DNA from: Cyanophora paradoxa CCMP329
Taxonomy: Eukaryota > Plantae > Glaucophyta
Length of the DNA stretch: 64,000 nucleotides
Assembly: GCA_004431415.1 (NCBI GenBank)
Contig: QPMI01000033.1
Span: forward strand, 13,545-77,544
Direction of reading: 5' to 3'
This document shows positions 21,370-64,000 of this stretch, piece after piece. Position 1 is the stretch's first letter; every line of letters starts with the position of its first letter. The notes under the pieces were generated by a model. That model was not told the origin of the DNA. It searched no databases and saw only the letters and a list, made by a program, of their open reading frames with translations. The position numbers were made by a program, and so were the translations under genes.

Positions 21370-21694
21370 AGGCCCTATTTATTTAGCAGTCGGATTGCCG
21401 CAAGTGAACTGTGAACTGAACCTAGAAGCAGTTGATTTATATTATACTATGATTATTCAAAGCCTTTCAAATTTTCGAAGTTTGCCTCGCGCTCTTCTAT
21501 CCGATGATCGATTGTGATTCAATGATTATCATAGCTTGATAGAAGCCTTGCTAATATTCATGCGCGCATACGTATACATTCCCCTTGATTATAACTAGGT
21601 TATATACAATTGGACCCCCCTCCCCCCTCCCCCCCCCCTTCCCTCCCCCTCCCTCCCCCCCCCCCCCCTCCCTGCCCCTCCCTCGAGCTCCCCT

Positions 21695-21875
21695 CCCCGA
21701 GCCGGCCGCGGCACGAGCGAGCGCCGCACAGACTTTCTGGAGCGCTGCTTCCTGCCGAGTGACCCGGCGGCCATAGCCCTTCTCAAGGCCGGGCCTGCCT
21801 CGGGCCGCCCGTACCTCACCACTGCATGCTAGCTGCCGACGTACGCGTACGCGTGCCGCCCGCCCCGCCGCCTCC
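21695..21875 (+). pseudogene. Diverged inverted copy of one PAP2 gene exon (source ~36790-36949) inside the duplication junction
   Basis: ...cag actttctggagcgctgcttc...gcctgcctcgggccgcccgtacctcaccactgc matches the reverse complement of the DFLERCFP..GRPYLTTAD exon, with several substitutions and small insertions. Confidence 0.8.
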
Positions 21876-25170: not shown

Positions 25171-25514
25171 AGAAATACGCAAACCATTCAAGGATGAAAG
25201 CTTCGAATTCAATTGCAAGGCTTCAAAGGCGTAGTTGGAGCTAGAGATGAAAGTCGAGGTTCAAAGCTTGCAATTGAGAGGCGCTCGCGATCGCGATTGA
25301 ATTGATTATTGGCAGAAGAAGTACTAGTACAGCGTTGAGGTGCTCAAAACGCGTTGAAATGGAGAAGACGCGTTTATCTACAAGAAAAGAAACTGCTCTG
25401 AAAAGAAAGGAATTTACAAGAAAGAAAGGCATGGGAGCGACGGAAATCAGAAAACCAGAGGCCAGGCCAAGGCGAAATAAAACCAGATGAGAGCAATGAG
25501 GGCGGCGGGGGGGC

Positions 25515-46669: not shown

Positions 46670-46914
46670 TGGGCCTTTGTGAAGCGTTGAGCTCTCGAGC
46701 TTGCCCCTTCGCTGTCAATGCATTGTTAACCCTCGGAGGTTGCATGAGTCACGCGTCGCGGAGGTTTGGGTGTTATATTGCGATCAGGTACACGCTGCAC
46801 TAACAGGGGGGCTAGCACTAACCGACGCGGGGAGTAACAGCCGGTGTACCCCTCGGGGGGCCTCCCGGCCTCTAACGATGCTCAGGCTCTAACTGAATGC
46901 TGTACCCCCCGCTG

Positions 46915-47654
46915 TTACTGCCCGAACCTTCCGAACTTGCGTAATTCGGCCTCGCCCTGTACCCAGTGGCTGGTGTCGTCCATCCATTCGCGTACCTCCC
47001 TCTGACGCTTGAGTGACTCACGCTGCTCGGGGGTAGGGGAGGGGGGGCCTTCGAGGCGGGGTGGGGAAGGGGGTACGGTGGCAAAATTCAGCCACTCGGG
47101 GGTATGCCGAATTCGCCGTGAACGATCCTCTGCGGTGTGAAATACCGGTCGCTGCTCACGGCCAAGTGGAAGAACGCGCTCCTGAGCCCGGAGAGGAAGC
47201 GTGGTTGCATGAATGGCTGCTGGAGGGACTCGTCGCGCCAGGGGGCTACGAAATCAATGATACGCTGCTGTACCTGCGCGGGCAGGGCAAGGATCTGGCT
47301 CTTGCGGTTCGCAAAGGCCGTCCACAGCGCTTGCAGGTCGGCCCAATCGCCGTTCAGATCCCTGCGTTCGCGCCTCAGGTACGATCTCGGGTTCTCTGTC
47401 ATACCCATCAAGCCCGCGGCCCTGATCATCTCCCTGTCCGGGAGCTCTCGCTCGTCGTGGAATTCGTCTCTAATCCAGCGCACAAGGTAGAGCACGCGCT
47501 CCATGAAGTTCTCCGCCGGCGAGCCGCCCCCTGAGGACGTGCGCCTCCCCTCCAGCACTGCGTTCGCATCCTCCAAGTCCACGTTCCGCTGTCGAATCTC
47601 CCCGTCCAGGTCGCCGTTGTTGTACAGCACGTCGGACTCGCGTGTTCGCGCCAT
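46915..47654 (-). CDS. Viral-type hypothetical protein with F-box-like motif (paralog A); 1-nt frameshift in the C-run at ~47098-47102
   Basis: ORF 47088-47654 continues in another frame as EWLNF..GPPSPTPEQRESLKRQREVREWMDDTSHWVQGEAELRKFGRFGQ*, matching the C-terminus of paralog B. Confidence 0.75.
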
Positions 47655-47689
47655 GCTCGCGGCTCGGTGAGAATTTCTACCTGTACCCC

Positions 47690-48432
47690 CTACTCGCGGT
47701 CGGGGTATCGAGGGCCTGGCAGCCTCGCGCGCTTCCGCAGCTCGGCCTCGTCTGGCGACCAGCTCGTCGGATCATTGCTGTACTCCATCCACCTGCGAAT
47801 CTGACCCTCCCGCAGTATCTCTTGGCGCTGCTCCGCCGTGGGCGCCGGTGGGCCGTACGGTGGGCCGGCAGGCGTCAGTTTTCTATACTTGTATCTCTTG
47901 AACCGTTCTTCCATATTGTCTTGTTCTTCGTCCCATCCTTCAGGGATCAAATCCGATGGGGGGACATAGGGTACCACCCATTCATCTTCCTTGTTTTTGG
48001 CGTGGTGAACGAAGCCTTGGAAGTAGTGCTTCAAAATATTGAGCGGGCGATTGATGATCTCCGTGCGAGTGCCCGCATTCAGGAAGAGATCCAGTATAAC
48101 TCTCTGAACGTCTTGGGGCAGGTAGGTCATGGGGCTCTTGCGCGAGCCGAACGCCCACCAGAGCTTGCGAAGTTCATCGCGAACCCTGCCCATGTCGTCC
48201 CTGTGTTCGATTTCGTACACCGGCGGCTCATACGTTCGGATGTCTACCCTGGACCCGAGGCCTCTGCGTGCCACATCGCGCAAATACGTCGCAGCCATGC
48301 CCCGTCTCGCATTGTATTGGGGATCTCTTCTTTCACCCAGCCGATCAGCCCGTTTACCTGCTTAGTGTAATCTCGGATGTACCCCGATAGCGGTGGGAGG
48401 GTAGTCTGATTATCAGACATATGCATTCGCAC
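47690..48432 (-). CDS. Paralog B, copy 1 (1-nt homopolymer frameshift at ~48300)
   Basis: Identical to 51474-52217 except for one missing C (gcccc vs gccccc). Confidence 0.7.
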
Positions 48433-48470
48433 ACATCAAGAAATTCTAAACGCTACTGCGAGGCTAAGCT

Positions 48471-49136
48471 ATGCATACCGATACAGATTGCGAGACTTGC
48501 GAGAACTTACAACAGGGGAGCGCGGCGTGGCACGCGGCGCGCCGTGAAAAACTAACTGCATCTAATTTTGCGGCTGCGTGCGGTATAAACCCCTGGAAAT
48601 CCAGGGCCCGCCTGTGGGCGGAGCTAAGCGGGATAGCGGAGGAAAACAACTTTGACAACCCTGCCCTAACCTACGGGCATGACTATGAGCCCTTCGCGGT
48701 CTCTCTCTACAAAACGTTGAACAATAACGTGGACGTGCAACATACTGGATTGCACGAACATAAGGAACTGCCCTTCCTGGCGGGGAGCCCGGACGGGCTA
48801 ATCGGAAACGATCGCATACTCGAAATAAAATGTCCGTACAAACAAGAACTCTACGACAAGGTTCCTACCTATTACATGACGCAGCTGCAAGGACTTTTAG
48901 ACATAACGGGCCGCGAGTGGGCCGAACTTTTTTGCTTCACGCCTCTGCGCGTGCAAACGTGGTACGTCAGACGGGACGAGAGGTACATCGAGCTCATGCG
49001 GCGGTGCTTACATCTATTTTGGTCGCACGTGAAGGCTGGAACTCCGCCCGAGCCCTACAGCGATCGAATGAAGTCAGAGAACCTCAGCGAGGAGCAGGCG
49101 GCGCTGCGCGAGTTTAAGTCGTACGCCCTCCTCTAG
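48471..49136 (+). CDS. YqaJ-like / lambda-exonuclease family viral recombinase nuclease (copy 1)
   Basis: LQQGSAAWHAARREKLTASNF, YGHDYEP, PD-(D/E)xK core FLAGSPDGL..ILEIKCP, and YYMTQLQGLL. Confidence 0.92.
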   Translation: MHTDTDCETCENLQQGSAAWHAARREKLTASNFAAACGINPWKSRARLWAELSGIAEENNFDNPALTYGHDYEPFAVSLYKTLNNNVDVQHTGLHEHKELPFLAGSPDGLIGNDRILEIKCPYKQELYDKVPTYYMTQLQGLLDITGREWAELFCFTPLRVQTWYVRRDERYIELMRRCLHLFWSHVKAGTPPEPYSDRMKSENLSEEQAALREFKSYALL

Positions 49137-49714
49137 TGTCCCGACCCTCTCAGATATTAATTTAAAGATCTGGGAGGGTCGGGACACGTCTCTTGGTCAG
49201 ACTACTTATGTACGCCCTCCTCTAGTGTCTCGACCCTCTCAGATATTAATTTAAAGATCTGGGAGGGTCGGGACACGTCTCTTGGTCAGACTACTTATGT
49301 ACGCCCTCCCTCCTCTAGTGTCCGGACCTTTCCAATAATCTATAAAGAAAGTAGGGAGGGTCCGGACACGTCTCTTGGTCGGACTCACCGTAGCTTGGTG
49401 TAGCTCAGGCCCAGGCGGGGAAGGCGAGTCTGCAATGAATCAGACCCCACAGGATTTGGTTGAGCTGCTCTTTGCAGGGGGGCAGGAAGGCGGCCGCAGA
49501 GGGCTAGGGAGACTAGATCTAATTAGTAATCCCACACCGCGCATGTGCAAGCGACAGAGAACGAAGTGAGTAAATGCAGATCGATGATACGGCAATCATG
49601 AGTTGTTCAGAAAAGGTCGGGACACATAGAGAGTGCATGCCCTCACTCTCGTCCGCCCTCGCAATGTCCCGACCCTCCCAGATCTTTAAATTAATATCTC
49701 AAAAGGTCGAGACA
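49136..49714. repeat. Palindromic repeat cluster: three tandem ~89-93 bp units with 52-bp palindromes (49136-49187, 49225-49276, 49318-49369) plus an inverted copy (49665-49714)
   Basis: Core sequence GTGTCCCGACCCTCtCAGAT-attaatttaaag-ATCTGgGAGGGTCGGGACAC. Confidence 0.95.
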
Positions 49715-49815
49715 TTCATTGATCATATGCATGACGTCACTTGAATTCGCACGTTCGTATTTACACACTGGCACGCGCATCCCGTTCGCGAAGTCCACAC
49801 TGTGACATCCGACAA

Positions 49816-51427
49816 TCACACGCGCCTGTGAATGAGAGCATAGCAGTCGGAGAAAACGTTGTAAACCTCTGGGAAGCTTGGCGCCATGCCTGCCCTTGCC
49901 TGCTTAGCCTGGCGCTCTACTGCGTCGTCGAGCATGTCTTCCTCCCACGTGATGTAGCGTCGCTTTCGGCTGCCCATTTGCCCTCCGTCCGCGTCGGAGA
50001 AAGCGCGTCTCACTCCGAGGTACTTCTCCAGCAGGTACTTGATGACTTGCCAAGACTGCTGCGAGAGCCGCTTCTTCTCACCGTCCGCTGCATCGAAGCG
50101 GGGCGCGCGCTCGTCCAGACTCTGCAGAGCCGCGTACGCCTCCCGACCCTCCGGCGACGCCAGGGCCGCGTAGGCTTCGTCCGACCACAGAGCACGCCCG
50201 CGAGCTTTCCATACCCCCGCCAGCCGAAGAGTTTCTTGAACAGCGCGACGACCTTCGATACCTTGAGGCGCTCAGCAGTAGGCACGATCTCGGCAACGTC
50301 CGCGCCATGCTTCAGCACCAGCGTGACCACGGCAGTGAGCGGGATGGAGTAGAACGAATCCCACATCCAGGCGACGTCTCCTTCGGTCAGCTCGCTCGGA
50401 TCCTTGGCCAGGAACGCGGCGATCGACGTGCGAGCAAGCGAAGCAACCTTCTCGATGTCCAGCTTAGCGAGAGACTCGCGGGACTGCCTCCAGGCCAGCA
50501 CCGTGCTCCACAGATCGACGGGCTCCAGCGCGCCCGCCTCCAGCACGCTCCTGATCTCGCGCAGCCGCTGCTCCTTCTCCTGCTTCGGTCCGCTCGGGTT
50601 TTGATCCTCCGTGACTTGCACGTTCATCAGCGCGCAGGTCGACATCAGCCGCAGGCGCGCTGCCACTGCGAGGCGCCGAGTGGGCATGCCGGCGCGGCGG
50701 CTCCCGCGGTGGCTAGCCTTCAGGTCCAGGTAGCGCTGCATGTCGTCCGAGCTCTCGTCGTCGTCGCTCTCACGCCAGTGCGCAGCCGCCGCGCCGACCG
50801 CAACCGAGGGCGTCCGGTTCTTGCGCACGGCGACGAGCAGGTGCTCTCCGTCGGGCGTGCTGCGTTTGCGCAGCCTTCTGACTCGAAACAGCAGCTGCAC
50901 GATGTCGTCCGCCTCCAGCTGCGCGGGCTCTGCCTGGAACACGCCGTAGACCTTGTCAAAGTGCGCGTCCGAAAAGTCCACGCCTGCCCCGAGCGCGGAA
51001 GTTGCGATGAGCACGTCGCAGGCCTTGTACGCGCCCTCCTCAGACACATCGATCGACACGATGCGCACTGGGCCCTCGTTCGTGAAGCGCACGCTCTTCT
51101 CCTTGGCCTGCCCAACGATGAGCCCGATCGTGAACGGTGCGCCGCTGCCGTCCTCGGGCCCTGCCTCGAGCTGAGTCACGTACTGAGCGCCGCCCAGGCT
51201 GAGCTGCTCCAGCGCCTGCTTCGCAATCTTCTCCTGCATCTCGATCGCCTTGGCCGGCGTCTCTGCAATGATCATCGCCCGGCAGCGCCCCGGTCTGCAC
51301 AGCGCCATGATGTCCGCCTCGACGTGCGCCGGGCTGTCTGACACGCGCATCTTCCAGTCGCAGGTGCGATGCGAGTTGTACAGGAGCCCCAGGCGCGCCC
51401 CGACCTCCTGCGCCGACTCTGCCAGGT
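49816..51427 (-). pseudogene. 5'-truncated duplicate of the UL9-like helicase
   Basis: Identical to the 3' part of 53601-55213; cut at the duplication junction, so it lacks motifs I-III; an extra frameshift at ~50197. Confidence 0.85.
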
Positions 51428-51473
51428 GTTCGCGCCATGCTCGCGGCTCGGTGAGAATTTCTACCTGTACCCC

Positions 51474-52217
51474 CTACTCGCGGTCGGGGTATCGAGGGCC
51501 TGGCAGCCTCGCGCGCTTCCGCAGCTCGGCCTCGTCTGGCGACCAGCTCGTCGGATCATTGCTGTACTCCATCCACCTGCGAATCTGACCCTCCCGCAGT
51601 ATCTCTTGGCGCTGCTCCGCCGTGGGCGCCGGTGGGCCGTACGGTGGGCCGGCAGGCGTCAGTTTTCTATACTTGTATCTCTTGAACCGTTCTTCCATAT
51701 TGTCTTGTTCTTCGTCCCATCCTTCAGGGATCAAATCCGATGGGGGGACATAGGGTACCACCCATTCATCTTCCTTGTTTTTGGCGTGGTGAACGAAGCC
51801 TTGGAAGTAGTGCTTCAAAATATTGAGCGGGCGATTGATGATCTCCGTGCGAGTGCCCGCATTCAGGAAGAGATCCAGTATAACTCTCTGAACGTCTTGG
51901 GGCAGGTAGGTCATGGGGCTCTTGCGCGAGCCGAACGCCCACCAGAGCTTGCGAAGTTCATCGCGAACCCTGCCCATGTCGTCCCTGTGTTCGATTTCGT
52001 ACACCGGCGGCTCATACGTTCGGATGTCTACCCTGGACCCGAGGCCTCTGCGTGCCACATCGCGCAAATACGTCGCAGCCATGCCCCCGTCTCGCATTGT
52101 ATTGGGGATCTCTTCTTTCACCCAGCCGATCAGCCCGTTTACCTGCTTAGTGTAATCTCGGATGTACCCCGATAGCGGTGGGAGGGTAGTCTGATTATCA
52201 GACATATGCATTCGCAC
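51474..52217 (-). CDS. Viral-type hypothetical protein with F-box-like motif (paralog B, intact copy)
   Basis: Intronless ORF of 247 aa containing LRKLWWAFGSRKSPMTYLPQDVQRVILDLF. Confidence 0.8.
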   Translation of the reverse strand: MRMHMSDNQTTLPPLSGYIRDYTKQVNGLIGWVKEEIPNTMRDGGMAATYLRDVARRGLGSRVDIRTYEPPVYEIEHRDDMGRVRDELRKLWWAFGSRKSPMTYLPQDVQRVILDLFLNAGTRTEIINRPLNILKHYFQGFVHHAKNKEDEWVVPYVPPSDLIPEGWDEEQDNMEERFKRYKYRKLTPAGPPYGPPAPTAEQRQEILREGQIRRWMEYSNDPTSWSPDEAELRKRARLPGPRYPDRE

Positions 52218-52255
52218 ACATCAAGAAATTCTAAACGCTACTGCGAGGCTAAGCT

Positions 52256-52921
52256 ATGCATACCGATACAGATTGCGAGACTTGCGAGAACTTACAACAG
52301 GGGAGCGCGGCGTGGCACGCGGCGCGCCGTGAAAAACTAACTGCATCTAATTTTGCGGCTGCGTGCGGTATAAACCCCTGGAAATCCAGGGCCCGCCTGT
52401 GGGCGGAGCTAAGCGGGATAGCGGAGGAAAACAACTTTGACAACCCTGCCCTAACCTACGGGCATGACTATGAGCCCTTCGCGGTCTCTCTCTACAAAAC
52501 GTTGAACAATAACGTGGACGTGCAACATACTGGATTGCACGAACATAAGGAACTGCCCTTCCTGGCGGGGAGCCCGGACGGGCTAATCGGAAACGATCGC
52601 ATACTCGAAATAAAATGTCCGTACAAACAAGAACTCTACGACAAGGTTCCTACCTATTACATGACGCAGCTGCAAGGACTTTTAGACATAACGGGCCGCG
52701 AGTGGGCCGAACTTTTTTGCTTCACGCCTCTGCGCGTGCAAACGTGGTACGTCAGACGGGACGAGAGGTACATCGAGCTCATGCGGCGGTGCTTACATCT
52801 ATTTTGGTCGCACGTGAAGGCTGGAACTCCGCCCGAGCCCTACAGCGATCGAATGAAGTCAGAGAACCTCAGCGAGGAGCAGGCGGCGCTGCGCGAGTTT
52901 AAGTCGTACGCCCTCCTCTAG
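52256..52921 (+). CDS. YqaJ-like / lambda-exonuclease family nuclease (copy 2)
   Basis: Identical translation to 48471-49136. Confidence 0.92.
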   Translation: MHTDTDCETCENLQQGSAAWHAARREKLTASNFAAACGINPWKSRARLWAELSGIAEENNFDNPALTYGHDYEPFAVSLYKTLNNNVDVQHTGLHEHKELPFLAGSPDGLIGNDRILEIKCPYKQELYDKVPTYYMTQLQGLLDITGREWAELFCFTPLRVQTWYVRRDERYIELMRRCLHLFWSHVKAGTPPEPYSDRMKSENLSEEQAALREFKSYALL

Positions 52922-53499
52922 TGTCCCGACCCTCTCAGATATTAATTTAAAGATCTGGGAGGGTCGGGACACGTCTCTTGGTCAGACTACTTATGTACGC
53001 CCTCCTCTAGTGTCTCGACCCTCTCAGATATTAATTTAAAGATCTGGGAGGGTCGGGACACGTCTCTTGGTCAGACTACTTATGTACGCCCTCCCTCCTC
53101 TAGTGTCCGGACCTTTCCAATAATCTATAAAGAAAGTAGGGAGGGTCCGGACACGTCTCTTGGTCGGACTCACCGTAGCTTGGTGTAGCTCAGGCCCAGG
53201 CGGGGAAGGCGAGTCTGCAATGAATCAGACCCCACAGGATTTGGTTGAGCTGCTCTTTGCAGGGGGGCAGGAAGGCGGCCGCAGAGGGCTAGGGAGACTA
53301 GATCTAATTAGTAATCCCACACCGCGCATGTGCAAGCGACAGAGAACGAAGTGAGTAAATGCAGATCGATGATACGGCAATCATGAGTTGTTCAGAAAAG
53401 GTCGGGACACATAGAGAGTGCATGCCCTCACTCTCGTCCGCCCTCGCAATGTCCCGACCCTCCCAGATCTTTAAATTAATATCTCAAAAGGTCGAGACA
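52921..53499. repeat. Second copy of the palindromic repeat cluster (52921-52972, 53010-53061, 53103-53154; inverted copy 53450-53499)
   Basis: Part of the 3.78-kb duplication. Confidence 0.95.
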
Positions 53500-53600
53500 T
53501 TCATTGATCATATGCATGACGTCACTTGAATTCGCACGTTCGTATTTACACACTGGCACGCGCATCCCGTTCGCGAAGTCCACACTGTGACATCCGACAA

Positions 53601-56600
53601 TCACACGCGCCTGTGAATGAGAGCATAGCAGTCGGAGAAAACGTTGTAAACCTCTGGGAAGCTTGGCGCCATGCCTGCCCTTGCCTGCTTAGCCTGGCGC
53701 TCTACTGCGTCGTCGAGCATGTCTTCCTCCCACGTGATGTAGCGTCGCTTTCGGCTGCCCATTTGCCCTCCGTCCGCGTCGGAGAAAGCGCGTCTCACTC
53801 CGAGGTACTTCTCCAGCAGGTACTTGATGACTTGCCAAGACTGCTGCGAGAGCCGCTTCTTCTCACCGTCCGCTGCATCGAAGCGGGGCGCGCGCTCGTC
53901 CAGACTCTGCAGAGCCGCGTACGCCTCCCGACCCTCCGGCGACGCCAGGGCCGCGTAGGCTTCGTCCGACCACAGAGCACGCCCCGCGAGCTTTCCATAC
54001 CCCCGCCAGCCGAAGAGTTTCTTGAACAGCGCGACGACCTTCGATACCTTGAGGCGCTCAGCAGTAGGCACGATCTCGGCAACGTCCGCGCCATGCTTCA
54101 GCACCAGCGTGACCACGGCAGTGAGCGGGATGGAGTAGAACGAATCCCACATCCAGGCGACGTCTCCTTCGGTCAGCTCGCTCGGATCCTTGGCCAGGAA
54201 CGCGGCGATCGACGTGCGAGCAAGCGAAGCAACCTTCTCGATGTCCAGCTTAGCGAGAGACTCGCGGGACTGCCTCCAGGCCAGCACCGTGCTCCACAGA
54301 TCGACGGGCTCCAGCGCGCCCGCCTCCAGCACGCTCCTGATCTCGCGCAGCCGCTGCTCCTTCTCCTGCTTCGGTCCGCTCGGGTTTTGATCCTCCGTGA
54401 CTTGCACGTTCATCAGCGCGCAGGTCGACATCAGCCGCAGGCGCGCTGCCACTGCGAGGCGCCGAGTGGGCATGCCGGCGCGGCGGCTCCCGCGGTGGCT
54501 AGCCTTCAGGTCCAGGTAGCGCTGCATGTCGTCCGAGCTCTCGTCGTCGTCGCTCTCACGCCAGTGCGCAGCCGCCGCGCCGACCGCAACCGAGGGCGTC
54601 CGGTTCTTGCGCACGGCGACGAGCAGGTGCTCTCCGTCGGGCGTGCTGCGTTTGCGCAGCCTTCTGACTCGAAACAGCAGCTGCACGATGTCGTCCGCCT
54701 CCAGCTGCGCGGGCTCTGCCTGGAACACGCCGTAGACCTTGTCAAAGTGCGCGTCCGAAAAGTCCACGCCTGCCCCGAGCGCGGAAGTTGCGATGAGCAC
54801 GTCGCAGGCCTTGTACGCGCCCTCCTCAGACACATCGATCGACACGATGCGCACTGGGCCCTCGTTCGTGAAGCGCACGCTCTTCTCCTTGGCCTGCCCA
54901 ACGATGAGCCCGATCGTGAACGGTGCGCCGCTGCCGTCCTCGGGCCCTGCCTCGAGCTGAGTCACGTACTGAGCGCCGCCCAGGCTGAGCTGCTCCAGCG
55001 CCTGCTTCGCAATCTTCTCCTGCATCTCGATCGCCTTGGCCGGCGTCTCTGCAATGATCATCGCCCGGCAGCGCCCCGGTCTGCACAGCGCCATGATGTC
55101 CGCCTCGACGTGCGCCGGGCTGTCTGACACGCGCATCTTCCAGTCGCAGGTGCGATGCGAGTTGTACAGGAGCCCCAGGCGCGCCCCGACCTCCTGCGCC
55201 GACTCTGCCAGGTACGCGAGATCGACCGACCGAACGAAGCCGTCCATCGCCACGATGCGCGATGCCTTCATCACGCCGCGCCATAGGCCCACGCAGCGCG
55301 CGTTTCGAGGCACTGACCGCATACCTAGGTGCAGGCCGGTGGGCTCGAGGGTGCCGCTCGAGGTGAGGTGCTTCGTGAGGGAGGAGAGCTCGTCCAGCAC
55401 GACCAGTAGCGGCGCCGTCGACCAGCCCTCCCAGTCCTCGAGCACCTTGTGCAGCGAGTCCCATGTGATGACGACGCACCTGCACTCCTCATGGCGGAAG
55501 CCCCACTTGCCATGCGATCCCTTTGAGCTCTCCGGTGGCTTCTTGATGTCCATGTAAAGCACGGCGTCCTTTGACAACTCCGCAGCATCAATGCGACGCT
55601 TGAGGTCGCGGGAGAAGGCCCGGCGGCAAGTCACGAGGATCACTCGCCAGCCGCCTGCAAGGGCCGGGTCCAGGTACGCATCGATCAGCGCCTGCGTCTT
55701 CCCCGTGTTGAGTCCCGAGCAGATGACGTCGACCTGCGGCTGAGCGGATCTCGGGTTCTGCTCCAGCGCCCCGAATGCGGAGGTAAGGATCTTGCACGAG
55801 AGGTGGCGTTCATCCACTGCATTGACGCAAGCCTCCAGGCCCGTCGACTCGAGCGCGATCAGGAGGGAGGGGAGGGCAATGTCGAAGGCGACAGGCTGCG
55901 AGGGATCGGTCACATAGCGGGTCTGTGCCACGCTGCCCGACTCCCCTCCGGTCCCTCCCCCTCGAGCTCGACTTCAATACCGTGCGCCTGGATGGAGATT
56001 CGAGCCGCCGGCGCCCCGGCTGACTCCCGCCCAGGACGAGGGTGATGGACCCGTCGGGCTCGACTCCAAGGTGCTGAACGCGGCGGGCGTCGTGCAGGCC
56101 AAGGTCCGCGCGCAGCTCTGCCCCCGCCTTCCAGATCTCGTCCCTCACCGCCTTGTTCTTGCGTAGGCGGTCCAGGAGCCGCTCCAAGGCCGGCAGGCTT
56201 GGGCTCGAATCCAGGAGAGCGCCCGGCTCCGGGATGGGCTTAGCGCGGGGCGCCGAGCTTCTGGATGGAGTGGGGAGGAGCTCCGCTCGCGGCCCGGGCG
56301 CCGGCCCCCGCAGAACGTAGCCCCCGGTGCCATCCACACCGAGCTCCAGGCCGCTCGAGCTCCCAAAGAACCATGCCATGAGATCGCAAGCCTCCGGGCT
56401 CTGTAGGACGTAGGCAGCCTTGAATCCATTATCCAAGGGGCGAGAGAAAGTGAAGCCTCCGAACTTGGTTGCAAAGGCGCAGGCTGCCGCAGTGCTCGTC
56501 TCATCCTCGGCACCCGAGAAGTGGCTGGGGGTGATGCAGGGCGGGTGGAAGACGCAGAAAGCCGTCCCCAGGGTCGGGCTGCAGGCCTTCTGGACTTCGA

Positions 56601-56722
56601 CGAGAGGGAATCGAACGAAAAAGCTGCACTCCTGCTCGCTCAGATCTATCTGCTGTACCCCGGGCCCGGGCATACGGGCCAGGAAGGCGTCGACGTCGAG
56701 AGACACGCGTCCGGTTGCCATG
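53601..56722 (-). CDS. Origin-binding-protein (herpes UL9-like) SF2 helicase, probably fused to an N-terminal Prim-Pol-like domain across two homopolymer frameshifts
   Basis: UL9-type motifs SGLNTGKT, VILVTCRRAF, VITWDSLHKV, VVLDELSSL, IVAMDG, DVLIATSALGAGVDFSDAHFD and QLLFRVRRL in ORF 53601-55931. The upstream ORF from ATG 56722 joins if one G is restored in each of two G-runs (~56027, ~55945). Confidence 0.85.
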
Positions 56723-56811
56723 GTCGTCTCTCTATAGCTAGGCTTGGAAAATTCTAGATCTACTAGGCTAGTCAACGTCTGTTGGCTAGCTATAGTCGAC
56801 GTCTGGACTGC

Positions 56812-56947
56812 TGTCTCGACCTTCTGAGATATTAATTTAAAGATCTGGGAGGGTCGGGACAGGCTCTGGTCCGTCTGGATCCGGACTGCTCAGCGGCTGT
56901 CTCGACCTTCTGAGATATTAATTTAAAGATCTGGGAGGGTCGGGACA
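56812..56947. repeat. Two further 50-bp palindromic repeats (56812-56861, 56898-56947) upstream of the helicase gene
   Basis: TGTCTCGACCTTCTGAGATATTAATTTAAAGATCTGGGAGGGTCGGGACA twice with an 86-bp period; the reverse complement of 53450-53499 with one mismatch. Confidence 0.95.
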
Positions 56948-58091
56948 GGCTTTGGTCCGACCTTAAGCGCTCAACTAGACCCGGTTGACACCGTCTTGAT
57001 CTCTCCTTCTTGGCGCAGCGGACGATGTGACGCGCAGACCGTCGGCCCGGCGGACGGGGAGGCGCGCGCGTAGAACTTCGGAAGCGCTAGCCCCTTGCTT
57101 GACCGAAGCTTAGAAAGTTTTGAGCGCACGTGAATGCGACACGTGTAGAGAGAAGGCAGAGCGCGCCGGAGCTAGCTTGCGCGGCCGAGCGCTCGACCGC
57201 CTTTGCTCCTAAGCTCAGAAAGTTTTGGGCTCACGCGGTTGCTCCACGTGTTTCGACTCAAAACACAGTACCCCAACCCGAAAAAAAGCGCCCGGGCAGC
57301 GCATCTCGCAGCGCCCGGGCCCAGCGCTCCTTGCAGCACTTGCCAGAGGCACTAGCTTGCATTCCGCTCAGCCCGGAGAGCCGCCGCCTCGCTCCTTTCG
57401 ATTCGGAGGTGCGCCTCACTTCGCAACCTCTTTCTCCGCACCACGGCTAGCTCCGGACCTCAGATTTTGGGCGCTGGAAAGCTCTCTCGACGCCGCACTC
57501 ACGCCGCCACGCGCAGGGTCGCTCGCGCCGGCCGCGGACCTTCGAAAGCTCGATGGCGCCCGAGCCGGAGCACTCCGCCGCATCCCGCAGGTGCCAGCTC
57601 GCTCTCTTGCCGCTCTATCCCTTGCATTTAGCACCTAGAACATGCCCCGCAACCTCGCGCTCGATTCGCCCGCGTCCGCTGACATTTGGTCTCTGAGCAG
57701 GTGCCGAGATTGGCCGCCGCGCCTTCCGCAACTCGAGCCGACGTTCGCGGCGACTTGCGCACGCTTCTAGATCTCGTTCTCAAGCCCGCGCATCGATTCG
57801 GCGGCTCCGGCTCGCCTCCCCGCGCCTCCAGCCCCGCGCCCCACACCCGTTCTTGTCCTAGCTAAGCCCTCCCTTGTCCGCGGCCAGTCGCGGGCTACGC
57901 GCATCGCGGATAGCATCAGTGGAGCTACGTTTCAGCGCTGGACGCAGGCCCGCCCGCCCAATCCTCCCACCTCCCGCTCGCAGCACGCTCACTGGGCCGC
58001 AGGCAGCTTCGCGGGGAGCCGCTGGATTCGAAGCCGCGCACCTTCCCCGCCCGTCCCGACGTCGTACGCGCTAACGTCGCCCGCGCCGCAG

Positions 58092-59247
58092 GTGGCCGCC
58101 AGGCCTCCTGCATCCAGGCCTTCGAGCCGGTGTGGCTGCGGGAGAAGCGCCTCGCCTTCTGGCAGGAGACGGCCTCCTGTCCCCTCACCCGCTTCATCAT
58201 CGCCCACTGCGCCGTCGACCCCACCACCTACGTCGCCGCCCCGAACACGGAGGGCTACATGACGAGCGTCGCGGGCATCGTCGAGTACATCGCGCGCACG
58301 GAGGGCCCCGACACCTCCGCCGCCGTCGGCGCCGACATCGAGAACGGCCGGCTGGACGAGACCCTCGCCGGCTTCGGCTCCTGGTGCCGCCCCTACTCCT
58401 ACAAGCTCGGCGGCGTCTGGCAGACCTACATCCGCGGCATCGTCCCCAAGGCCCCGCTCTCCCTCGGCGAGAGCCAGCCGGCGCTGGAGGCGATCGCGAT
58501 CCCCGTCGCCCAGTTCAAGGACCCGGCGCCCGACGTCGGGCCCTTCCTCGTCAAGCCCCACACCAAGGGCAAGGGCAAGCGCACCCGCAACTCGGCGCCG
58601 GCCTTCCTCCCGCCCCAGCCCCCCGCCACGGCCCCCCAGCAGCGCCCCGGCCAGCAGCGCATCGACGAGATGCTGCCGCGCCAGGTCCGGCCCCGCGTAC
58701 CCCCCGCCTTCCCTCCCGTACCCCCCCTCCCCCCGCCCCCCTCCTGATCCAAGGGCAGGGTACCCCGACGAACGGCGGCGCGGGCCCGAGCGGCTACGGG
58801 AGCTCGGCCTCCTCCGCGAGCGCCGACGGCCCCAGCCCCCTCCCCGGCCCCGGCGCCGTCCTCACCGCGATCCAGGGCTTCGGGGCCCAGCAGGAGGCCG
58901 AGCGGCGGGCGCTGGCGGCGCGCCAGGCGCGCGAGGCGGAGGAGCGGCGCCAGGCCCTCTGGGCCCAGCGCCTGCAGGCCACCATCGCCTTCCGCGCCGA
59001 GCTGGACTCCGGCTTCCGCGCGGCCAGATCGCCGGGGCGGAGGCCTCGGAGCGCTGGCGGGCGTTCGAGGCGGAGTCGGCGGGGCTGGCGAAGGGCCTCG
59101 GCTACAGCTACCGGCGCGTGCCCGTGCTCAAGACTACGCGTCGGCCGCGGCGCGGGAGGCCTCGCGGGCGAGATCGACGCGGCGGAGGAGCAGGCGGCGC
59201 GCGAGGAGGCCGAGGACAACGCGCGCTTCCGGCACCTGCACCACTGA
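58092..59247 (+). CDS. Hypothetical protein (Pro-rich middle, coiled-coil C-terminus); probable frameshifts near 58740 and 59035; 5' exons possible
   Basis: Strong GC3 codon bias in 58092-58740 and 58750-59247; a CTAAC...CGCAG acceptor at 58071-58091. Confidence 0.6.
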
Positions 59248-59295
59248 GGCCCGAGGCGGTATTTTTTCTCAACCCTCCCTCAATTCGGTCCCGCG

Positions 59296-59484
59296 ATGGC
59301 CTTCGAAGCTTATCCTGCCCACTACTCGCTAGGAGCGCTGGCCGCGACCCTCACCTGGCTCCTCGGCGGCACCCCCACGGCCTCGGCGGTCATAGGCGTG
59401 GGCTTCGGCTACGCCGCCAAGTCCCTCTACGCCCCCGGCGGCGCCTCGCAGGCGGCGGCCGGCATGCGCCCCGCCGGGCGCTAA
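59296..59484 (+). CDS. Small hydrophobic (two-TM) protein
   Basis: 62 aa with YSLGALAATLTWLLG and AVIGVGFGYAA; GC3-biased codons; T-rich upstream motif. Confidence 0.65.
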   Translation: MAFEAYPAHYSLGALAATLTWLLGGTPTASAVIGVGFGYAAKSLYAPGGASQAAAGMRPAGR

Positions 59485-59579
59485 CTTTTCAAAGTTCATT
59501 CTCCCCTCCCCCTTTTCCGAGTTCCGAGTCCGTTGGCGTTCCCTTTTAAATTTTCTTCATTCTCGTTACACGTTCGAAG

Positions 59580-60059
59580 ATGTCGAGCGCGGTAGAGAAG
59601 CTGCTGTGCACCGTGTTCAAATCGGATTCGCGATGCAGCAAGATCGGCGAGGCGGCGAGGGCTAAGGGTGGGGCGGCGGCGGAGGGGCCCAGGGTGAGGG
59701 CGGCGGATCCCGCGCCGCCGTCGCTGAAAACGATCAAGGGGGCGGGCAAGGGCAGGAGCGTGGGGGCGCTGCCCCTCGTGGCGATCGCGCCGGGGCAGAG
59801 GGAGGCGGCGCACGCGGCGACGGCGGCGCTGGCCGCGCGGCGCCAGGCGGAGGCCTACCCGTGCCTGGGCCGGGGGCTGCACCCGCCGGCCGGCCGCCCC
59901 TACGCCGTGAGCGCCTACTTCGACGAGGCCAACCGGCTGAGCTGCCAGGAGCTGTGCGACAACCGCATGCGGCGCGCCGTGGACGGGCACCTGCCGCTGC
60001 TGGTGGCGCTGGGCGGCTCGCTCCTGATGGTCTGGTACCTGCGCGGCCTGGTCATTTAG
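59580..60059 (+). CDS. Cys-containing protein with C-terminal membrane anchor
   Basis: 159 aa; C-terminal LPLLVALGGSLLMVWYL. Confidence 0.7.
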   Translation: MSSAVEKLLCTVFKSDSRCSKIGEAARAKGGAAAEGPRVRAADPAPPSLKTIKGAGKGRSVGALPLVAIAPGQREAAHAATAALAARRQAEAYPCLGRGLHPPAGRPYAVSAYFDEANRLSCQELCDNRMRRAVDGHLPLLVALGGSLLMVWYLRGLVI

Positions 60060-60096
60060 ATAGTTTTTCGAAACCCCGGTTGGAAGCTAGCCAAGG

Positions 60097-60422
60097 ATGA
60101 GCTGGCTCGATGCGCTGCTCACGAAGACCTTCGGCCCCAAGGGCCAGCCGCGCCTGCAGTTCGGCGAGATCAACGCGGCGATTGGCGCCACGGTGGAGAC
60201 GAAGAACCGAGAGAACGTCCTGCGCGGCGACGGAGGCGCGTGGGCCGACATTGCGGCGGGCGCCCTGGGCTCCGCGCTCACCGCACCGGGCAAGGCGGGC
60301 CGCGCGCTGACGGACGGGCCGAGCGCTTCTGGCACTGGCTCAAGGTGGCCGTTGTCATCGCCGCAGCGGTTGTGGCGGGTCTCCTGGTGCTCGAGGCTCG
60401 CGCGCTATTTTCTAAACGCTAG
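60097..60422 (+). CDS. Small protein with C-terminal TM (probable 1-nt frameshift near 60320)
   Basis: The frame MSWLDALLTKTFG.. is followed in another frame by FWHWLKVAVVIAAAVVAGLLVLEARALFSKR*. Confidence 0.6.
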
Positions 60423-60438
60423 GTAAACCGAGCGAACC

Positions 60439-60813
60439 ATGCGCGGCGGCTCTTCCCCCCGTGTTTCCTTCGCTGAGAACCCGGTGGCGAACGCAGTCGC
60501 CCCTACCCCCCTGGAGCCCGGAGTGAAGCTGGAGCGTGCGAACGCAGTCTCCGTCAAGAAGGCCAAGCGCACGCTGGCGCTGGAAGTCCCGGTCGCGGAG
60601 GATACGGAGAAGGTTGCATTCAACAAGCGCAAGACGTACAAGGCGATACGCGAGGGACAGCTGCTGCCCACGGACTCGGTTCCCGGGCTGCCGGGCACCA
60701 CGGCCGGCGAGCTCCTAGTGCGCAACCTGCGCCTGCAGTACGTCTCCCGCCTCCGCCGCTCCAAGGCCAAGAAGGCGCGCCTGGACTCGGGCGATAGCAG
60801 CTCTAGCTCGTAG
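60439..60813 (+). CDS. Basic hypothetical protein
   Basis: 124 aa, GC3-biased and Lys/Arg-rich, with TTTTCTAA upstream. Confidence 0.6.
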   Translation: MRGGSSPRVSFAENPVANAVAPTPLEPGVKLERANAVSVKKAKRTLALEVPVAEDTEKVAFNKRKTYKAIREGQLLPTDSVPGLPGTTAGELLVRNLRLQYVSRLRRSKAKKARLDSGDSSSSS

Positions 60814-60928
60814 GGCTCTGTACTGTTGTATTCAATGCCTTTACCAGTTCCTGTTCCTATCCCAGAGCACGACTCGGGTGAAGGCACGGTCATAGCGAAC
60901 ATGAACTCGGCGAACTTGGCAAAGTTCA

Positions 60929-61122
60929 TCAGGGTTCCCAGGCGGGGATCCTCCAGTAGATCGCCTCGCGCAGCGCCTCGTAGACGCGCATGAGGGAGCG
61001 CTCGTTCTCCGTCGCGAAGGCGTCGCCGGGCTCGTCGGGTCGGGATCCGTGAGCTCGGAGTACTCGTCCGAGCTGCCCGCGCTCTCGGCACCTGCGGCGG
61101 GGTCGGGCGAGGGGTCGGGCAT
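60929..61122 (-). CDS. Small acidic protein (probable 1-nt frameshift at ~61038)
   Basis: MPDPSPDPAAGAESAGSSDEYSELTDPD|PDEPGDAFATENERSLMRVYEALREAIYWRIPAWEP*. Confidence 0.45.
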
Positions 61123-61170
61123 TCTTTGCTGGTAGAAGGGCTAGAAGAGGGACCAGAAAATCACTAGCAA

Positions 61171-61512
61171 TCACGGGCGCCGGAACTCCATCGAGTCGCC
61201 GCGCCAGTACTTGTTGCCGGAGGCGAGCAGCTTCATCGGCTCGCCCGTCGAATCGTGCTTCCAGGCCTCGCCGTCCCAGAGGGCCGTGCCGCCGTCCTCT
61301 AGCTTGAGGCGGTGGCCCGGCTCGAGACGGTTGCCGTCGAGCATGCGGCCGGCCATGAGCGCCAGGTCCCACTCGGTGAGGTTGCGCTGCTCTGCGGGGG
61401 TGAGGCCGCGCTCGACGCGCTCGGGCTGGCGCGCCTCGCGCTCCATGCGGCTGAGGCCCACCAGGAAGAAGATGGGCAGGGCAAAGGCCATGAGATCTAG
61501 CAGGGCCTCCAT
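61171..61512 (-). CDS. Small protein with N-terminal TM
   Basis: MEALLDLMAFALPIFFLVGL followed by a Trp-rich domain (ALWDGEAWKHDSTG..KYWRG). Confidence 0.7.
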   Translation of the reverse strand: MEALLDLMAFALPIFFLVGLSRMEREARQPERVERGLTPAEQRNLTEWDLALMAGRMLDGNRLEPGHRLKLEDGGTALWDGEAWKHDSTGEPMKLLASGNKYWRGDSMEFRRP

Positions 61513-61522
61513 TGGGCAAGAC

Positions 61523-61810
61523 TTAGAAAAGGTTCCGGACCAGGCCCGAGAGCTGCGGGCCCAGGCGCCGGGCGGCGTAGTAGAGCGCGGCCGCCGCCGC
61601 CGCAAGGATCAGCAGGCGCGGCGGGCCGCGCGCCGGCTCCTCCAGCGTCAGGTCCACGGTCTCCGGCCCGCGCGCCGGAGCCGCCAGGATCTCGGGCTCG
61701 GAGCAGAGGGACTTGGGCCCACGGCGGCGGCGCTGCTTGGGCGCCGAGGCGGCGGCGGTGAGAAGGTCCTCAGGCTCCTGCTTGATACCTGCGCAGTCAG
61801 TAAAGTCCAT
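61523..61810 (-). CDS. Small protein with C-terminal TM
   Basis: MDFTDCAGIKQEPED..KQRRRR..TVDLT..LLILAAAAAALYYAA. Confidence 0.65.
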   Translation of the reverse strand: MDFTDCAGIKQEPEDLLTAAASAPKQRRRRGPKSLCSEPEILAAPARGPETVDLTLEEPARGPPRLLILAAAAAALYYAARRLGPQLSGLVRNLF

Positions 61811-62718
61811 GCTTGCTGGGTACCTTGGAAAATTGTGGGAGGCGTCCGGAGATTGCGAACGTAGGAGGGGGGAGAAATGACGCGGACGCAAAAGATTCCG
61901 TCATGGGTTTTCCGTCATGGGCTGGAACTTGGACTCGGGACTCGGCCGGGAATTCTCCTGGTAAGTTCGAGACTTGAACTCGGCGGGTACCCCCTATGTC
62001 CAAATGCCCTAGTGTCCCAGAGTCCTAGTGTCCTAGTGTCCTAGTAGTACTAAGTAGTACTAAGTAGGTGGTATCGATATCTAGCTAGCTAGCGCTAGCG
62101 CTTGCTTAATTAATTACCTGAAAGGTTGCGGAGGTTGCGGACGCGTCACAATTCCGTCATGGGTTTTCCGTCATGGGCTGGAACTTGGACTCGGGACTCG
62201 GCCGGAATTCTCCTGGTAAGTTCGAGACTTGAACAAGAACGACGTACCCCTCCTATGACCGTTCTATACTACATTAAAGTATTCATTGATTGTGAATAAC
62301 GATAATGTCATAGCAACTTCAGTATGATGTCATAGCAACTTGAAATTACCTTCAAGTCGAATAGAGGGGTACAGAGTCGGTACGTTAGACTTGACAAAAA
62401 CACGTGTATTTTTTTACGCCGAGTTTTGCGGCCGAGTCCCGAGTCCAAGTTCCAGCCCATGACGGAAAACCCATGACGGAATTGTGACGCGTCCGCAACC
62501 TCCGCAACCTTTCAGGTAAATGTCAGGTAACTTCAGGTTAATTAATTAAGCAAGCGCTAGCAAGCACTAGCTAGATATCACAGCTCTACCTTGCCCAAGT
62601 TGATGGTATCTAGCAAGGCCTGCTCCTCCAAGTCTGCACCACCACCGCCTCCCAGCGCTAGCGCTAGCTCGATACCGCTCCGGCCTTGATCTCCCTTGGC
62701 TCCAGCCACCTGAGAGGC

Positions 62719-63006
62719 TCAGGCCACCTCCTCCTGGTGAAGCCGGTATCGGTTGCTCTTGTCCAGCTTGAGGTAGCGGTAGGGCGCCGGCGCCGGCCAG
62801 TCCGGCCTGTGGCCGCTTGCCTCCTTGGCTATGTCCTTGGGCCTACGCGGTCGCAGGTCCGCCTTGGCCTTCGCCCTCTGCAGGGGGCCCAGCGCCTTGA
62901 ACTTCGGTGCCTTGGTCGCCGGCAGGGCCTTGGGCTGGGGCTTCTGGGGCTTCTGCATCTTCACCGCCTTGGGCTTCGGCATCCTTGGCTGCTTCGATTT
63001 CGGCAT
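62719..63006 (-). CDS. Lys/Pro-rich basic protein (possible DNA-condensing protein), overlapping the adjacent ORF
   Basis: 95 aa MPKSKQPRMPKPKAVKMQKPQKPQPK..; almost all codons end in G or C. Confidence 0.5.
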   Translation of the reverse strand: MPKSKQPRMPKPKAVKMQKPQKPQPKALPATKAPKFKALGPLQRAKAKADLRPRRPKDIAKEASGHRPDWPAPAPYRYLKLDKSNRYRLHQEEVA

Positions 63007-63246
63007 ACTTCTTGCTCATAAATGAGAAAAGCGCCTCAAAGTCTGCCTTTATCTCCTCCTTGGACCAGGATGTCATCTGATCCGGGTCACCTGAGAACGG
63101 CGCATCGAACGCCACGTGGAGCGATTTGCAGCCTGGGCAATCATTGGCTCGGGCCATGCCAGCTCGATCAGCTGAAGGTAAGATGTTGAGGGCCTTGTCG
63201 AGCTTGGCCGCCCTGGGAGACCAGCTGGGAGATGGCGGGCTCCATG
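62843..63246 (-). CDS. Hypothetical protein with CxxC and acidic tail (probable 1-nt frameshift at ~63213)
   Basis: MEPAISQLVSQ|AAKLDKALNIL..NDCPGCKSLH..WSKEEIKADFEALFSFMSKKY. Confidence 0.5.
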
Positions 63247-63440
63247 GTGGGTAGACTAGCATCAGAAAATGGCGCCAAGTTCGAATCTATTTTTTTACCG
63301 GGAGAGTTTGGGCCCGAGTCCCAGGTCCAAGTTCCAGCCCATGACGGAAAAACCCATGACGGAATCTTTCGCGTCCGCGTCACTTCTCCCCCCCCCCCTC
63401 CTCAGGTGAGCGCTCACCTGAACCTCACCTGAACGGCCTC

Positions 63441-63446
63441 TATAAG
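63441..63446 (+). promoter_or_regulatory. TATA-like box (TATAAG) upstream of the ORF at 63508
   Basis: An isolated TATAAG in GC-rich context, followed ~25-35 nt later by a pyrimidine-rich CA-containing tract and then the ATG. Confidence 0.35.
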
Positions 63447-63507
63447 CACGCGGCACGCGGCGTTCCCCTCACACTCTCAATCTCTCTCAACGCAACCAGC
63501 AAGCAAC

Positions 63508-63833
63508 ATGGCCCTTGTTGCCCAGTTCTTCGTCGAGGAATACACCGTGCGCGTGATCGGCGAGCCCATTGACCGCGAGGTGGAAGTTCTCAAGGACGGC
63601 AAAGTAGACGACTGCAAGGACTGCCCGGTAAGATCCTCCTCATGAAGCTCTCCGACGATGGCTTCTCCTTCACCCTGGTCTCCTGCGCCAAGACCCAAAC
63701 CGGACAGACGGCCTACATCGTGACCTTTCTCCGCGGGGCGCCTGAACTGCACGCATGTTCAAGTACCCGAGTGGGCCTCGTTCTGCGCGGCGATCTCTCC
63801 CTCAGGCCGCTCCCTCGCCTACACATTCTTTGA
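63508..63833 (+). CDS. Hypothetical protein (probable frameshift at ~63625; 3' end uncertain)
   Basis: MALVAQFFVEEYTVRVIGEPIDREVEVLKDGKVDDCKDCP|GKILLMKLSDDGFSFTLVSCAK..; GC3-biased codons. Confidence 0.55.
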
Positions 63834-64000
63834 GGGGTATCAGTGCACATCTGGGTCTTGCGGAGGCAGATGGGCTCCCCCCAGATGAAGGTCGATCAGC
63901 TGCACCAGCAGTGCGGCTACCCTTTAGCCTTGACGATAGGATGATTTCCTTTGATCTTGATGGCTCTGTATCCCTCTGAAATTGAACGCGTGTTTTCTGA

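Follow-up and report, generated by a model that had tools for sequence, protein, structure and literature searches.

Introduction

Helicases resembling UL9 have been catalogued in giant viruses, mriyaviruses and Polinton-like viruses, and our search of the literature retrieved nothing naming the binding sites of such helicases in viruses outside herpesviruses. In HSV-1 oriS, as given in the excerpt of PMC12543377 available, Box 1 and Box 2 are spaced by 41 bp (hand-counted from an oligonucleotide in that paper) and Box 3 is located 15 bp from Box 1. AEP-SF2 helicases are described in mriyaviruses, Mimivirus (R8), ASFV (pF1055L) and SmDNAV (PMC11253617; 10.64898/2026.08.29.747986); the accessible portions of these two reports name neither a binding site nor an origin for them. 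CyRepA1 of cyanobacterial plasmids is required for plasmid replication (excerpt of PMC9978351). Among the 156 glaucophyte elements in Table S6 of PMC12220804, D5-like primase-helicases are common and PF02399 is absent (0 of 156), the latter being recorded in 29 elements from four other host groups. Palindromes of 52 nt, with a proposed role in replication, flank the terminal inverted repeats of Halocafeteria virophages and PLVs and are linked to elements lacking pPolB (excerpt of 10.64898/2026.07.28.741278).

Here we describe a window of 64,000 nucleotides from the glaucophyte Cyanophora paradoxa CCMP329 (contig QPMI01000033.1, positions 13,545 to 77,544), in which a candidate site with oriS geometry adjoins its helicase gene in a cultured alga. 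Such a system would permit a direct test of herpes-type initiation outside herpesviruses, and it bears on how small polymerase-less DNA viruses start replication and exchange replication modules.

A Probable Virus-Like Element with a UL9-Type Helicase

Three runs show an increase in contig depth at about 46,670, and homologous gene models are present on many contigs. All sequence relatives found for the helicase are Cyanophora paradoxa gene models; since they sit on 25 contigs and have matching neighbours there, the region is a multi-copy, virus-like element, probably Polinton-like. The relatives include a helicase subfamily at 50% identity (P0004/P0022). The main features of the element are as follows:

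46670..64000, no strand: virus-like element present in many copies; position of left edge approximate, right end past the window
46915..47654, minus strand: gene without family assignment, paralogue 1; frame interrupted once in the window, near 47,097
47642..51426, no strand: tandem duplicate of 51426-55213, with part of paralogue 2, YqaJ, four palindromes and a 5′-truncated helicase
51474..52211, minus strand: gene, paralogue 2 (245 aa), divergently oriented from YqaJ; no family match
52256..52921, plus strand: YqaJ-like nuclease/recombinase (Pfam PF09588, E 1e-29; PHROG 434, E 4e-40)
53601..56721, minus strand: UL9/CyRepA1-type SF2 helicase; N-terminal domain without family match, helicase core, helical C-terminal domain
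54374..56034, plus strand: eight GT-AG introns of an antisense transcript, opposite the helicase, one run
56744..56751, minus strand: TTTTC-type motif 30 nt upstream of the helicase ATG, common to other genes of the element
58101..59247, plus strand: probable D5-like SF3 helicase gene, of which the 3′ part remains; upstream sequence kept in other copies
61867..63393, no strand: second repeat system, unrelated to the palindromes; four units of ~90 bp forming two nested inverted pairs around a 191-bp centre of 38% GC

No capsid gene (MCP), A32 ATPase, integrase or terminal inverted repeats were found among the ORFs scanned, and no VLTF2/3, HUH endonuclease, polymerase or site-specific recombinase gene was seen in the window; the element continues past 64,000. 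Region 47642-51427 repeats 51426-55213 at 99.95% identity, with two homopolymer indels. This duplication, the truncated second helicase and the multi-copy viral context had been overlooked in the preliminary description of the locus, as had the strand bias of mismatches reported below.

The helicase reading frame has two breaks near 55,950-56,015 in the window. ORFs 55810-56721 and 53601-55973 are likely to form one gene of ~1,040 aa, as they appear joined both in short-read contigs and in homologous gene models. The initial assignment of its product as UL9-like was borne out: it matches profile PF02399 with 34.1 bits (cut-off 20), HSV OBP is its best PDB match both by sequence and by Foldseek, and Walker A, DE and motifs V and VI are intact and aligned with those of HSV OBP. 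The match to CyRepA1 (NF042913; E 3e-15) scores 56 bits, under the cut-off of 200, and the helicase core aligns with CyRepA1 across the motifs (hhalign E 3e-9). Both structure models are poor (pLDDT 48.6 and 53.0). The helicase model was aligned with 9hgi by VIA (Z 9.3, rmsd 13.2, 298 aligned over model 31-757), while the C-terminal model alone retrieved several OBP-family proteins weakly (E 0.06-0.8) and, by VIA, generic helical matches only (best Z 7.0). For the N-terminal region, no AEP primase domain was matched in Pfam, PHROG, NCBIfam or the Atlas, one phage Prim-Pol gave no alignment, and the first 150 residues had no match in the ESM Atlas. A DUF3854 domain is absent from the protein, and so is, from the translation, the RVKNL recognition motif as it is given in the excerpt of PMC12543377.

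A search of 1.84 billion representatives with the helicase returned six matches, five of them to its own family; the sixth, an insect repeat protein (P0013), was dropped as spurious. No relatives were detected in the viral contigs, metagenome contigs or phage records searched. A helicase model adjoins YqaJ in 9 of 14 YqaJ gene models, the other five having no listed helicase beside them, and the module is rearranged in two other gene-model series. At 1.15 kb from the module is the 5′-truncated, probably D5-like gene, whose product aligns with a D5-type helicase domain (hhalign E 4e-4, probability 36%) and gave no significant library match and no viral locus. That this gene is kept longer in other copies suggests that the replication module was replaced.

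Six Palindromic Units with oriS-Like Geometry

The palindrome pattern matched ten times in the window and not once in 100 shuffles. All ten occurrences of the ~50-bp palindrome listed in the preliminary description were recovered; they are not independent, however, because four are products of the tandem duplication, which leaves six distinct units. That description had also missed a half-unit and a third box outside the stem. The units are:

49136..49369, plus strand: units 1-3, duplicate copies; pattern match
49664..49715, minus strand: unit 4, duplicate copy; pattern match
52921..52972, plus strand: unit 1; 20-bp stem, 12-nt A/T core
53010..53061, plus strand: unit 2; pattern match
53103..53154, plus strand: unit 3; both boxes doubly changed, different A/T core
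53397..53410 (approximate), minus strand: half-unit, left arm alone, 90 bp from unit 4
53449..53500, minus strand: unit 4; 100 nt past the helicase stop
56811..56862, plus strand: unit 5; 89 nt upstream of the helicase ATG
56897..56948, plus strand: unit 6; pattern match

The first base of unit 1 is also the final one of the YqaJ stop codon, as had been noticed, and the measured tandem periods of 89, 93 and 86 bp agree with the earlier range of 86-93 bp. The inverted pair 53450-53499 and 56812-56861, described with one mismatch, is indeed 98% complementary. It encloses the helicase, with margins of 100 and 89 nt, only if the two helicase ORFs are one gene, and it is not unique, since 56898-56947 pairs equally well with 53450-53499.

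The six units and the half-unit are all confined to the YqaJ and helicase module. Neither 45.6 kb of host DNA nor the 57-64 kb stretch contains a copy, hairpins of such size are found nowhere else in 46,670-64,000, and no match to an Rfam family, a tRNA or a bacterial-type terminator was obtained. Unit length is constant at 52, gapless, though the core sequence varies, with A or T at 10-11 of its 12 positions. The right arm is almost invariant and the left arm drifts. Four stem pairs have changed on both sides; the compensatory double change reported for unit 3, with its different A/T core, was confirmed, and the outermost stem pair also covaries among units (G-C, A-T, C-G). All five transition mismatches in the stems are G-T on one strand (p 0.03), i.e., G-U wobbles.

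In each of the six units, two inverted GTC-NN-GAC boxes, defined by us post hoc, lie 40 bp apart around the A/T core. A third box is present 16-18 bp past the right arm in all six (four exact, two with one mismatch), against a background of ~0.1% per position and with only three independent flank types. As in HSV-1 oriS (excerpt of PMC12543377), two inverted boxes ~40 bp apart surround an A/T spacer, a third, degenerate box lies outside the pair, the arms are unequal, and the helicase is an SF2 enzyme of the same family; the near-invariant right and drifting left arms resemble high- and low-affinity boxes. Unlike in HSV-1, the box sequence is different and each box is itself a small dyad, the core is 12 bp of A/T, six units are arrayed around the helicase gene itself in an integrated algal element, the helicase has an extra N-terminal domain and lacks RVKNL, and neither ICP8 nor a polymerase is seen in the window.

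Because this layout matches herpes oriS closely, we consider the units candidate origins. Our estimate is that, with a probability of about 0.55, the six palindromes are both the binding sites of the UL9-type helicase and replication origins in the manner of oriS; the oriS-like box spacing, the third box and the confinement to the helicase module argue for it, as do the constant unit length, the unequal arms, the family of the helicase, the need for CyRepA1 in plasmid replication and the frequent pairing of YqaJ with a helicase model. The GTC-NN-GAC boxes would be recognised by the C-terminal domain of the helicase, most strongly at the invariant right arm next to the third box. The 12-bp A/T core would then be melted by a pair of complexes spaced 40 bp apart, and a hairpin could keep the opened strand in place. 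As the window has no polymerase gene, synthesis would be supported by YqaJ and by enzymes of the host. Helicase, YqaJ and sites would have arrived as one module, which would have replaced the front of the older D5-like helicase gene.

Several observations weigh against this assignment, among them the missing RVKNL motif, the poor structure models and the G-T mismatches confined to one strand. A rule that UL9-like genes come with repeated dyads failed: none of 82 CyRepA1 loci had two or more such dyads (14 had one), compared to 0 of 159 YqaJ loci. In viral contigs the palindrome pattern matched two sequences, neither with an A/T core, and 162 loci fetched via YqaJ or the palindrome pattern (YqaJ identity at most 45%) gave no profile match to the helicase or its neighbours. 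Also against the assignment, the third box may simply have been inherited as part of a longer unit, and it may be YqaJ that the repeats accompany, since five of the 14 YqaJ models have no helicase listed beside them and loose read ends at 53,215 and 53,277 give a hint that different sequence follows the YqaJ arrays elsewhere. The repeats at 61.9-63.4 kb compete as a candidate origin.

Possible Alternative Roles of the Palindromes

The G-T mismatches, all on one strand, suit a single-stranded structure and keep alive the main rival reading, which we hold to be unlikely, namely that the palindromes are RNA hairpins marking transcript 3′ ends, imported with the module. The wobble strand, which is the sense strand after both YqaJ (plus) and the helicase (minus), folds with -26 to -39 kcal/mol (z -7 to -10), and the opposite strand is weaker by 3.5-12 kcal/mol; the pairs changed on both sides are also expected of a hairpin. 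One RNA-like run has a spliced plus-strand transcript running across the helicase, with depth dropping from 146 to 12 past units 5-6, where DNA runs stay level. In the same run, judged by contig depth only, depth is not reduced after the three YqaJ hairpins (66, then 148), and units 5-6 have no preceding sense gene. As with Mimivirus polyadenylation hairpins (excerpt of PMC4402537), a palindrome directly follows a stop codon. Those hairpins end most genes, whereas within 46,670-64,000 no gene other than YqaJ and the helicase has such a hairpin at its end, and here the stem is G+C-rich and sequence and spacing are conserved. RNA hairpins, moreover, need no tandem arrays, fixed box spacing or third box; the last favours an origin, because an RNA hairpin gains nothing from a box beyond its stem.

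It is quite improbable that the boxes are operators, bound by the helicase or another element protein, that control transcription of the module with no replication firing. Units 5-6 do lie 89-227 nt upstream of the helicase ATG and adjoin the motif common to other genes of the element, which is also present in the half-unit, and the antisense transcript covers the gene between units 4 and 5. Four of the six units, however, sit between convergent gene ends, and repression needs no intact ATPase/helicase core.

The earlier suggestion of an invertible or mobile helicase cassette, recombining at the repeats perhaps via YqaJ, appears very improbable to us. Units 4 and 5 do bracket the helicase gene as near-perfect complements, and the module is duplicated here and rearranged elsewhere. 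However, neither the ends of the duplication (47,642 and 55,213) nor the edge of the module coincide with palindromes, that edge (58,101) being 1,153 bp from the closest one. The helicase neighbours are the same on other contigs, a promoter-like motif is located inside the pair, and the window has no site-specific recombinase gene. No opposite-strand joint was seen at the units among the 15 joints listed out of 54, a weak negative because contigs break at repeats. Least credible is a non-autonomous transposon (MITE) or a functionless product of template switching: copies are in tandem and each box is a small dyad, so that paired changes could arise by template switching, but host DNA and the 57-64 kb region are free of copies, target-site duplications were looked for in the unit flanks and not found, and depth at the repeats is just ~2x that of neighbouring bins, contig depth being a rough measure.

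Comparison with Other Replication Modules

The candidate origins and their helicase differ from AEP-SF2 systems in that no intact AEP domain is shown and the window has no capsid, VLTF or HUH gene. With CyRepA1 (excerpt of PMC9978351) the locus shares a helicase core aligned across motifs and an antisense RNA; it differs in lacking DUF3854, in having repeated A/T-core dyads, absent from the 82 CyRepA1 loci, and in its antisense transcript, since that of CyRepA1 overlaps a neighbouring gene. The palindromes are similar in length to those of Halocafeteria elements, which are terminal, whereas the Cyanophora units are internal and clustered at one gene. Like Polinton-like viruses (excerpts of PMC12220804 and PMC10120064), the element is endogenous and multi-copy and has a putatively swappable replication module, with a D5-like or other non-pPolB replicase; unlike them, it shows no capsid, packaging ATPase, integrase or terminal repeats in the window.

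A broader scenario, which we offer tentatively and would not bet on, is that one family of endogenous Polinton-like viruses in this glaucophyte swapped a D5-like helicase for a UL9-type initiator with flanking oriS-like sites, that this device is portable and ancient, predating herpesviruses, and that the spliced antisense transcript bounded by the sites damps it. A second coding gene in the spliced antisense was rejected, its ORF having 333 codons versus 535 in the unspliced antisense. Divergent helicase subfamilies coexist in the Cyanophora paradoxa genome.

Palindromic Units and Their Copies

The palindrome is a real feature of this DNA. The preliminary description counted ten copies, and a pattern built on the arms does match ten times within 49,137-56,947 (0 in 100 shuffles); the third unit's double change, the inverted pair and the spacing of the tandem copies are also as noted there. 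Since 47,642-51,427 repeats 51,426-55,213 at 99.95% identity, however, four of the ten are duplicates, which leaves six distinct units and a half-unit. The two copies of the duplication differ by two homopolymer indels, and the duplication may itself be a long-read misassembly. A short-read contig ends at 47,671, the branch position expected of the duplication if the assembly word length is 31. Two other gene-model series run YqaJ-helicase-YqaJ or helicase-YqaJ-helicase, with a junction differing from that of the window. On the host side, 15,123-30,429 holds duplications of 1-3 kb (97-98% identity, histidine-kinase fragments included) that are alleles or misassembly.

Each unit is a gapless 52 bp, with 20-bp arms and a 12-bp core containing 10-11 A/T. 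Each arm carries a GTC-NN-GAC box, the two box starts are separated by 40 bp in every one of the six units, and a third box follows 16-18 bp past the right arm (exact in four units, with one mismatch in two). The arrangement resembles that of HSV oriS, in which a hand count from PMC12543377 gives 41 bp between the starts of Box 1 and Box 2, with Box 3 a further 15 bp out from Box 1.

The right arm is near-invariant and the left one drifts. Four stem pairs are altered on both sides, which could be the product of template switching; the five distinct sequences are related, so shuffle counts are not probabilities here. All five transition mismatches are G-T on one strand and none is A-C (p 0.03), the G-T strand being + in units 1-3 (after YqaJ), - in unit 4 (after the helicase stop) and + in units 5-6 (ahead of the helicase ATG). 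This bias agrees with a hairpin formed in RNA or in single-stranded DNA, and also with a left site that is the weaker one and is decaying by C-to-T change.

The Helicase

ORF 53,601-55,973 matches PF02399 above cut-off and NCBIfam CyRepA1 with E 3e-15, though far under that family's cut-off; its best solved sequence is HSV OBP (E 0.0016). HSV OBP also ranked first in the PDB for a low-confidence helicase model (pLDDT 48.6), whose BFVD matches include numerous herpesvirus and giant-virus origin-binding proteins; VIA aligned over 298 positions (span 31-757, Z 9.3, rmsd 13.2), a score tied with unrelated folds. A separate C-terminal model (pLDDT 53.0) again retrieved several of these origin-binding proteins, with E-values short of significance. 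Because contigs of three DNA-like runs are one base off the window at each of two places (~55,950-56,015), and homologous gene models fuse the upstream ORF's domain to the helicase, the gene is likely a single frame of ~1,040 codons starting at 56,721. Its N-terminal domain, which is assigned to no family, is possibly a decayed AEP primase, judged by eye from its motifs.

Every family member that turned up is a gene model bearing the label Cyanophora paradoxa (49-100% identity); these models lie on at least 25 contigs among the clusters looked up. UL9-like helicases of small and giant protist viruses are already on record in the parts seen of PMC11253617, 10.64898/2026.08.29.747986 and PMC12220804. 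Hand-counted columns of Table S6 in the latter give PF02399 in 0 of 156 glaucophyte Polinton-like elements and in 29 elements of four other groups. Searches that covered openly readable papers, preprint main texts and a minor part of the PMC12220804 supplement found no literature on cognate sites of such helicases or on this element.

Candidate Origin Sites or RNA Hairpins

Because the spacing is fixed, a box lies outside, the arms are unequal, and arrays flank the gene on both sides while other gene ends are without units, we favour protein binding: the initiator-type helicase encoded next to the units would bind them in double-stranded form, and they are predicted origins (probability about 0.55). 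Against this counts the finding that none of 82 CyRepA1 loci has repeated dyads of the unit kind. The origin role is also contested by another set of repeats (61.9-63.4 kb), a candidate that could be the origin of the element or of an older replicase, a terminal junction or an enhancer. This second system (61,867-63,393) has four ~90-bp units with doubled 12-mers, which form two nested inverted pairs on either side of an A/T-rich centre, and encloses a 95-codon Lys/Pro/Ala-rich ORF (62,722-63,006, -) whose product is possibly DNA-condensing.

That the units are instead RNA 3'-end hairpins is rather improbable. The strand bias of the mismatches speaks for it, as does RNA depth in run X15 (short-read contigs), which falls past units 5-6 with no fall after units 1-3, a weak hint from one run of contigs; hairpins of the unit type are, however, absent from all other gene ends of the element (46,670-64,000). 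The same run has eight joints over the helicase that are absent in three other runs (15 of 54 joints listed). All eight can be placed as GT-AG introns of the + strand (two also as CT-AC). The gene is therefore probably traversed by a spliced antisense transcript, in which there is no long ORF. Some public gene models (P0037, P0039) use antisense exons here.

54,374-56,034, + strand: eight GT-AG introns of the antisense transcript over the helicase gene, from a single RNA-like run (X15)
56,744-63,269: TTTTC-type motif upstream of seven element ORFs, at a distance of 18-39 nt

An invertible helicase cassette, proposed earlier from the inverted pair, is unlikely because breakpoints steer clear of the repeats and neighbouring genes are constant.

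The TTTTC-type motif, spotted by eye, has 12 occurrences between 51,427 and 64,000 (shuffle mean 1.8, maximum 6, 200 shuffles) and in 7 of 12 cases lies upstream of an ORF of at least 60 codons, the helicase among them. It is a candidate helper-virus promoter; some copies contain TCTA, presumably the CroV/Mavirus late promoter core.

The Element and Its Replicases

Left of 46,670 lie intron-rich host genes (53 selected ORFs examined). In run X4, contig depth, which is not copy number, is 13-14 there and 669 over the helicase gene; the corresponding values in run X5 are 242 and 3,972. A host ribose-phosphate pyrophosphokinase gene (43,500-45,267, +) directly adjoins the element on its left, and at the left edge lies a perfect 450-bp inverted repeat with host-level depth (45,656-46,669). 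This repeat may be an assembly fold-back, because short-read contigs diverge from the window inside it, at 45,687 and 46,103. Of 14 YqaJ models, 9 adjoin a helicase model. The window, beyond which the element extends, showed no gene for a capsid protein, an ATPase or an integrase.

Of 26 gene models in the family of the probable D5-like helicase remnant (58,101-59,247, +), 12 lie at most eight gene numbers from a UL9-type helicase model. Some homologues reach upstream into a P-loop domain, which hhalign aligns with a D5-type helicase of a phage (E 4e-4, probability 36%; the template was chosen after a weak match). Similarity of the window to this family begins at 58,100, and one run has a loose end at 58,101 that codes for the upstream part lacking in the window. 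A UL9-type neighbour accompanies 1 of 7 models that keep upstream sequence versus 11 of 19 truncated ones (p 0.08), or 13 of 19 when accession distance is used to include one further contig (p 0.03). This greater frequency beside truncated models suggests, without proving, that one replicase was replaced by another, which resembles the exchange described for mriyaviruses in the part seen of PMC11253617.

Between 59,100 and 63,200, many single-base homopolymer differences separate window and short-read contigs, and ORFs there are likely split through assembly errors. Genes at 46,915-47,654 and 51,474-52,211 form a paralogous pair without assigned function (32% across 92 aa) whose C-terminal tails resemble each other; P0029 carries a third variant, apparently fused to a helicase fragment. 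P0057, a metagenomic YqaJ on a 1.9-kb contig, has 65% identity to that of the window; judging by this sequence, a related element is present outside the Cyanophora paradoxa genome.
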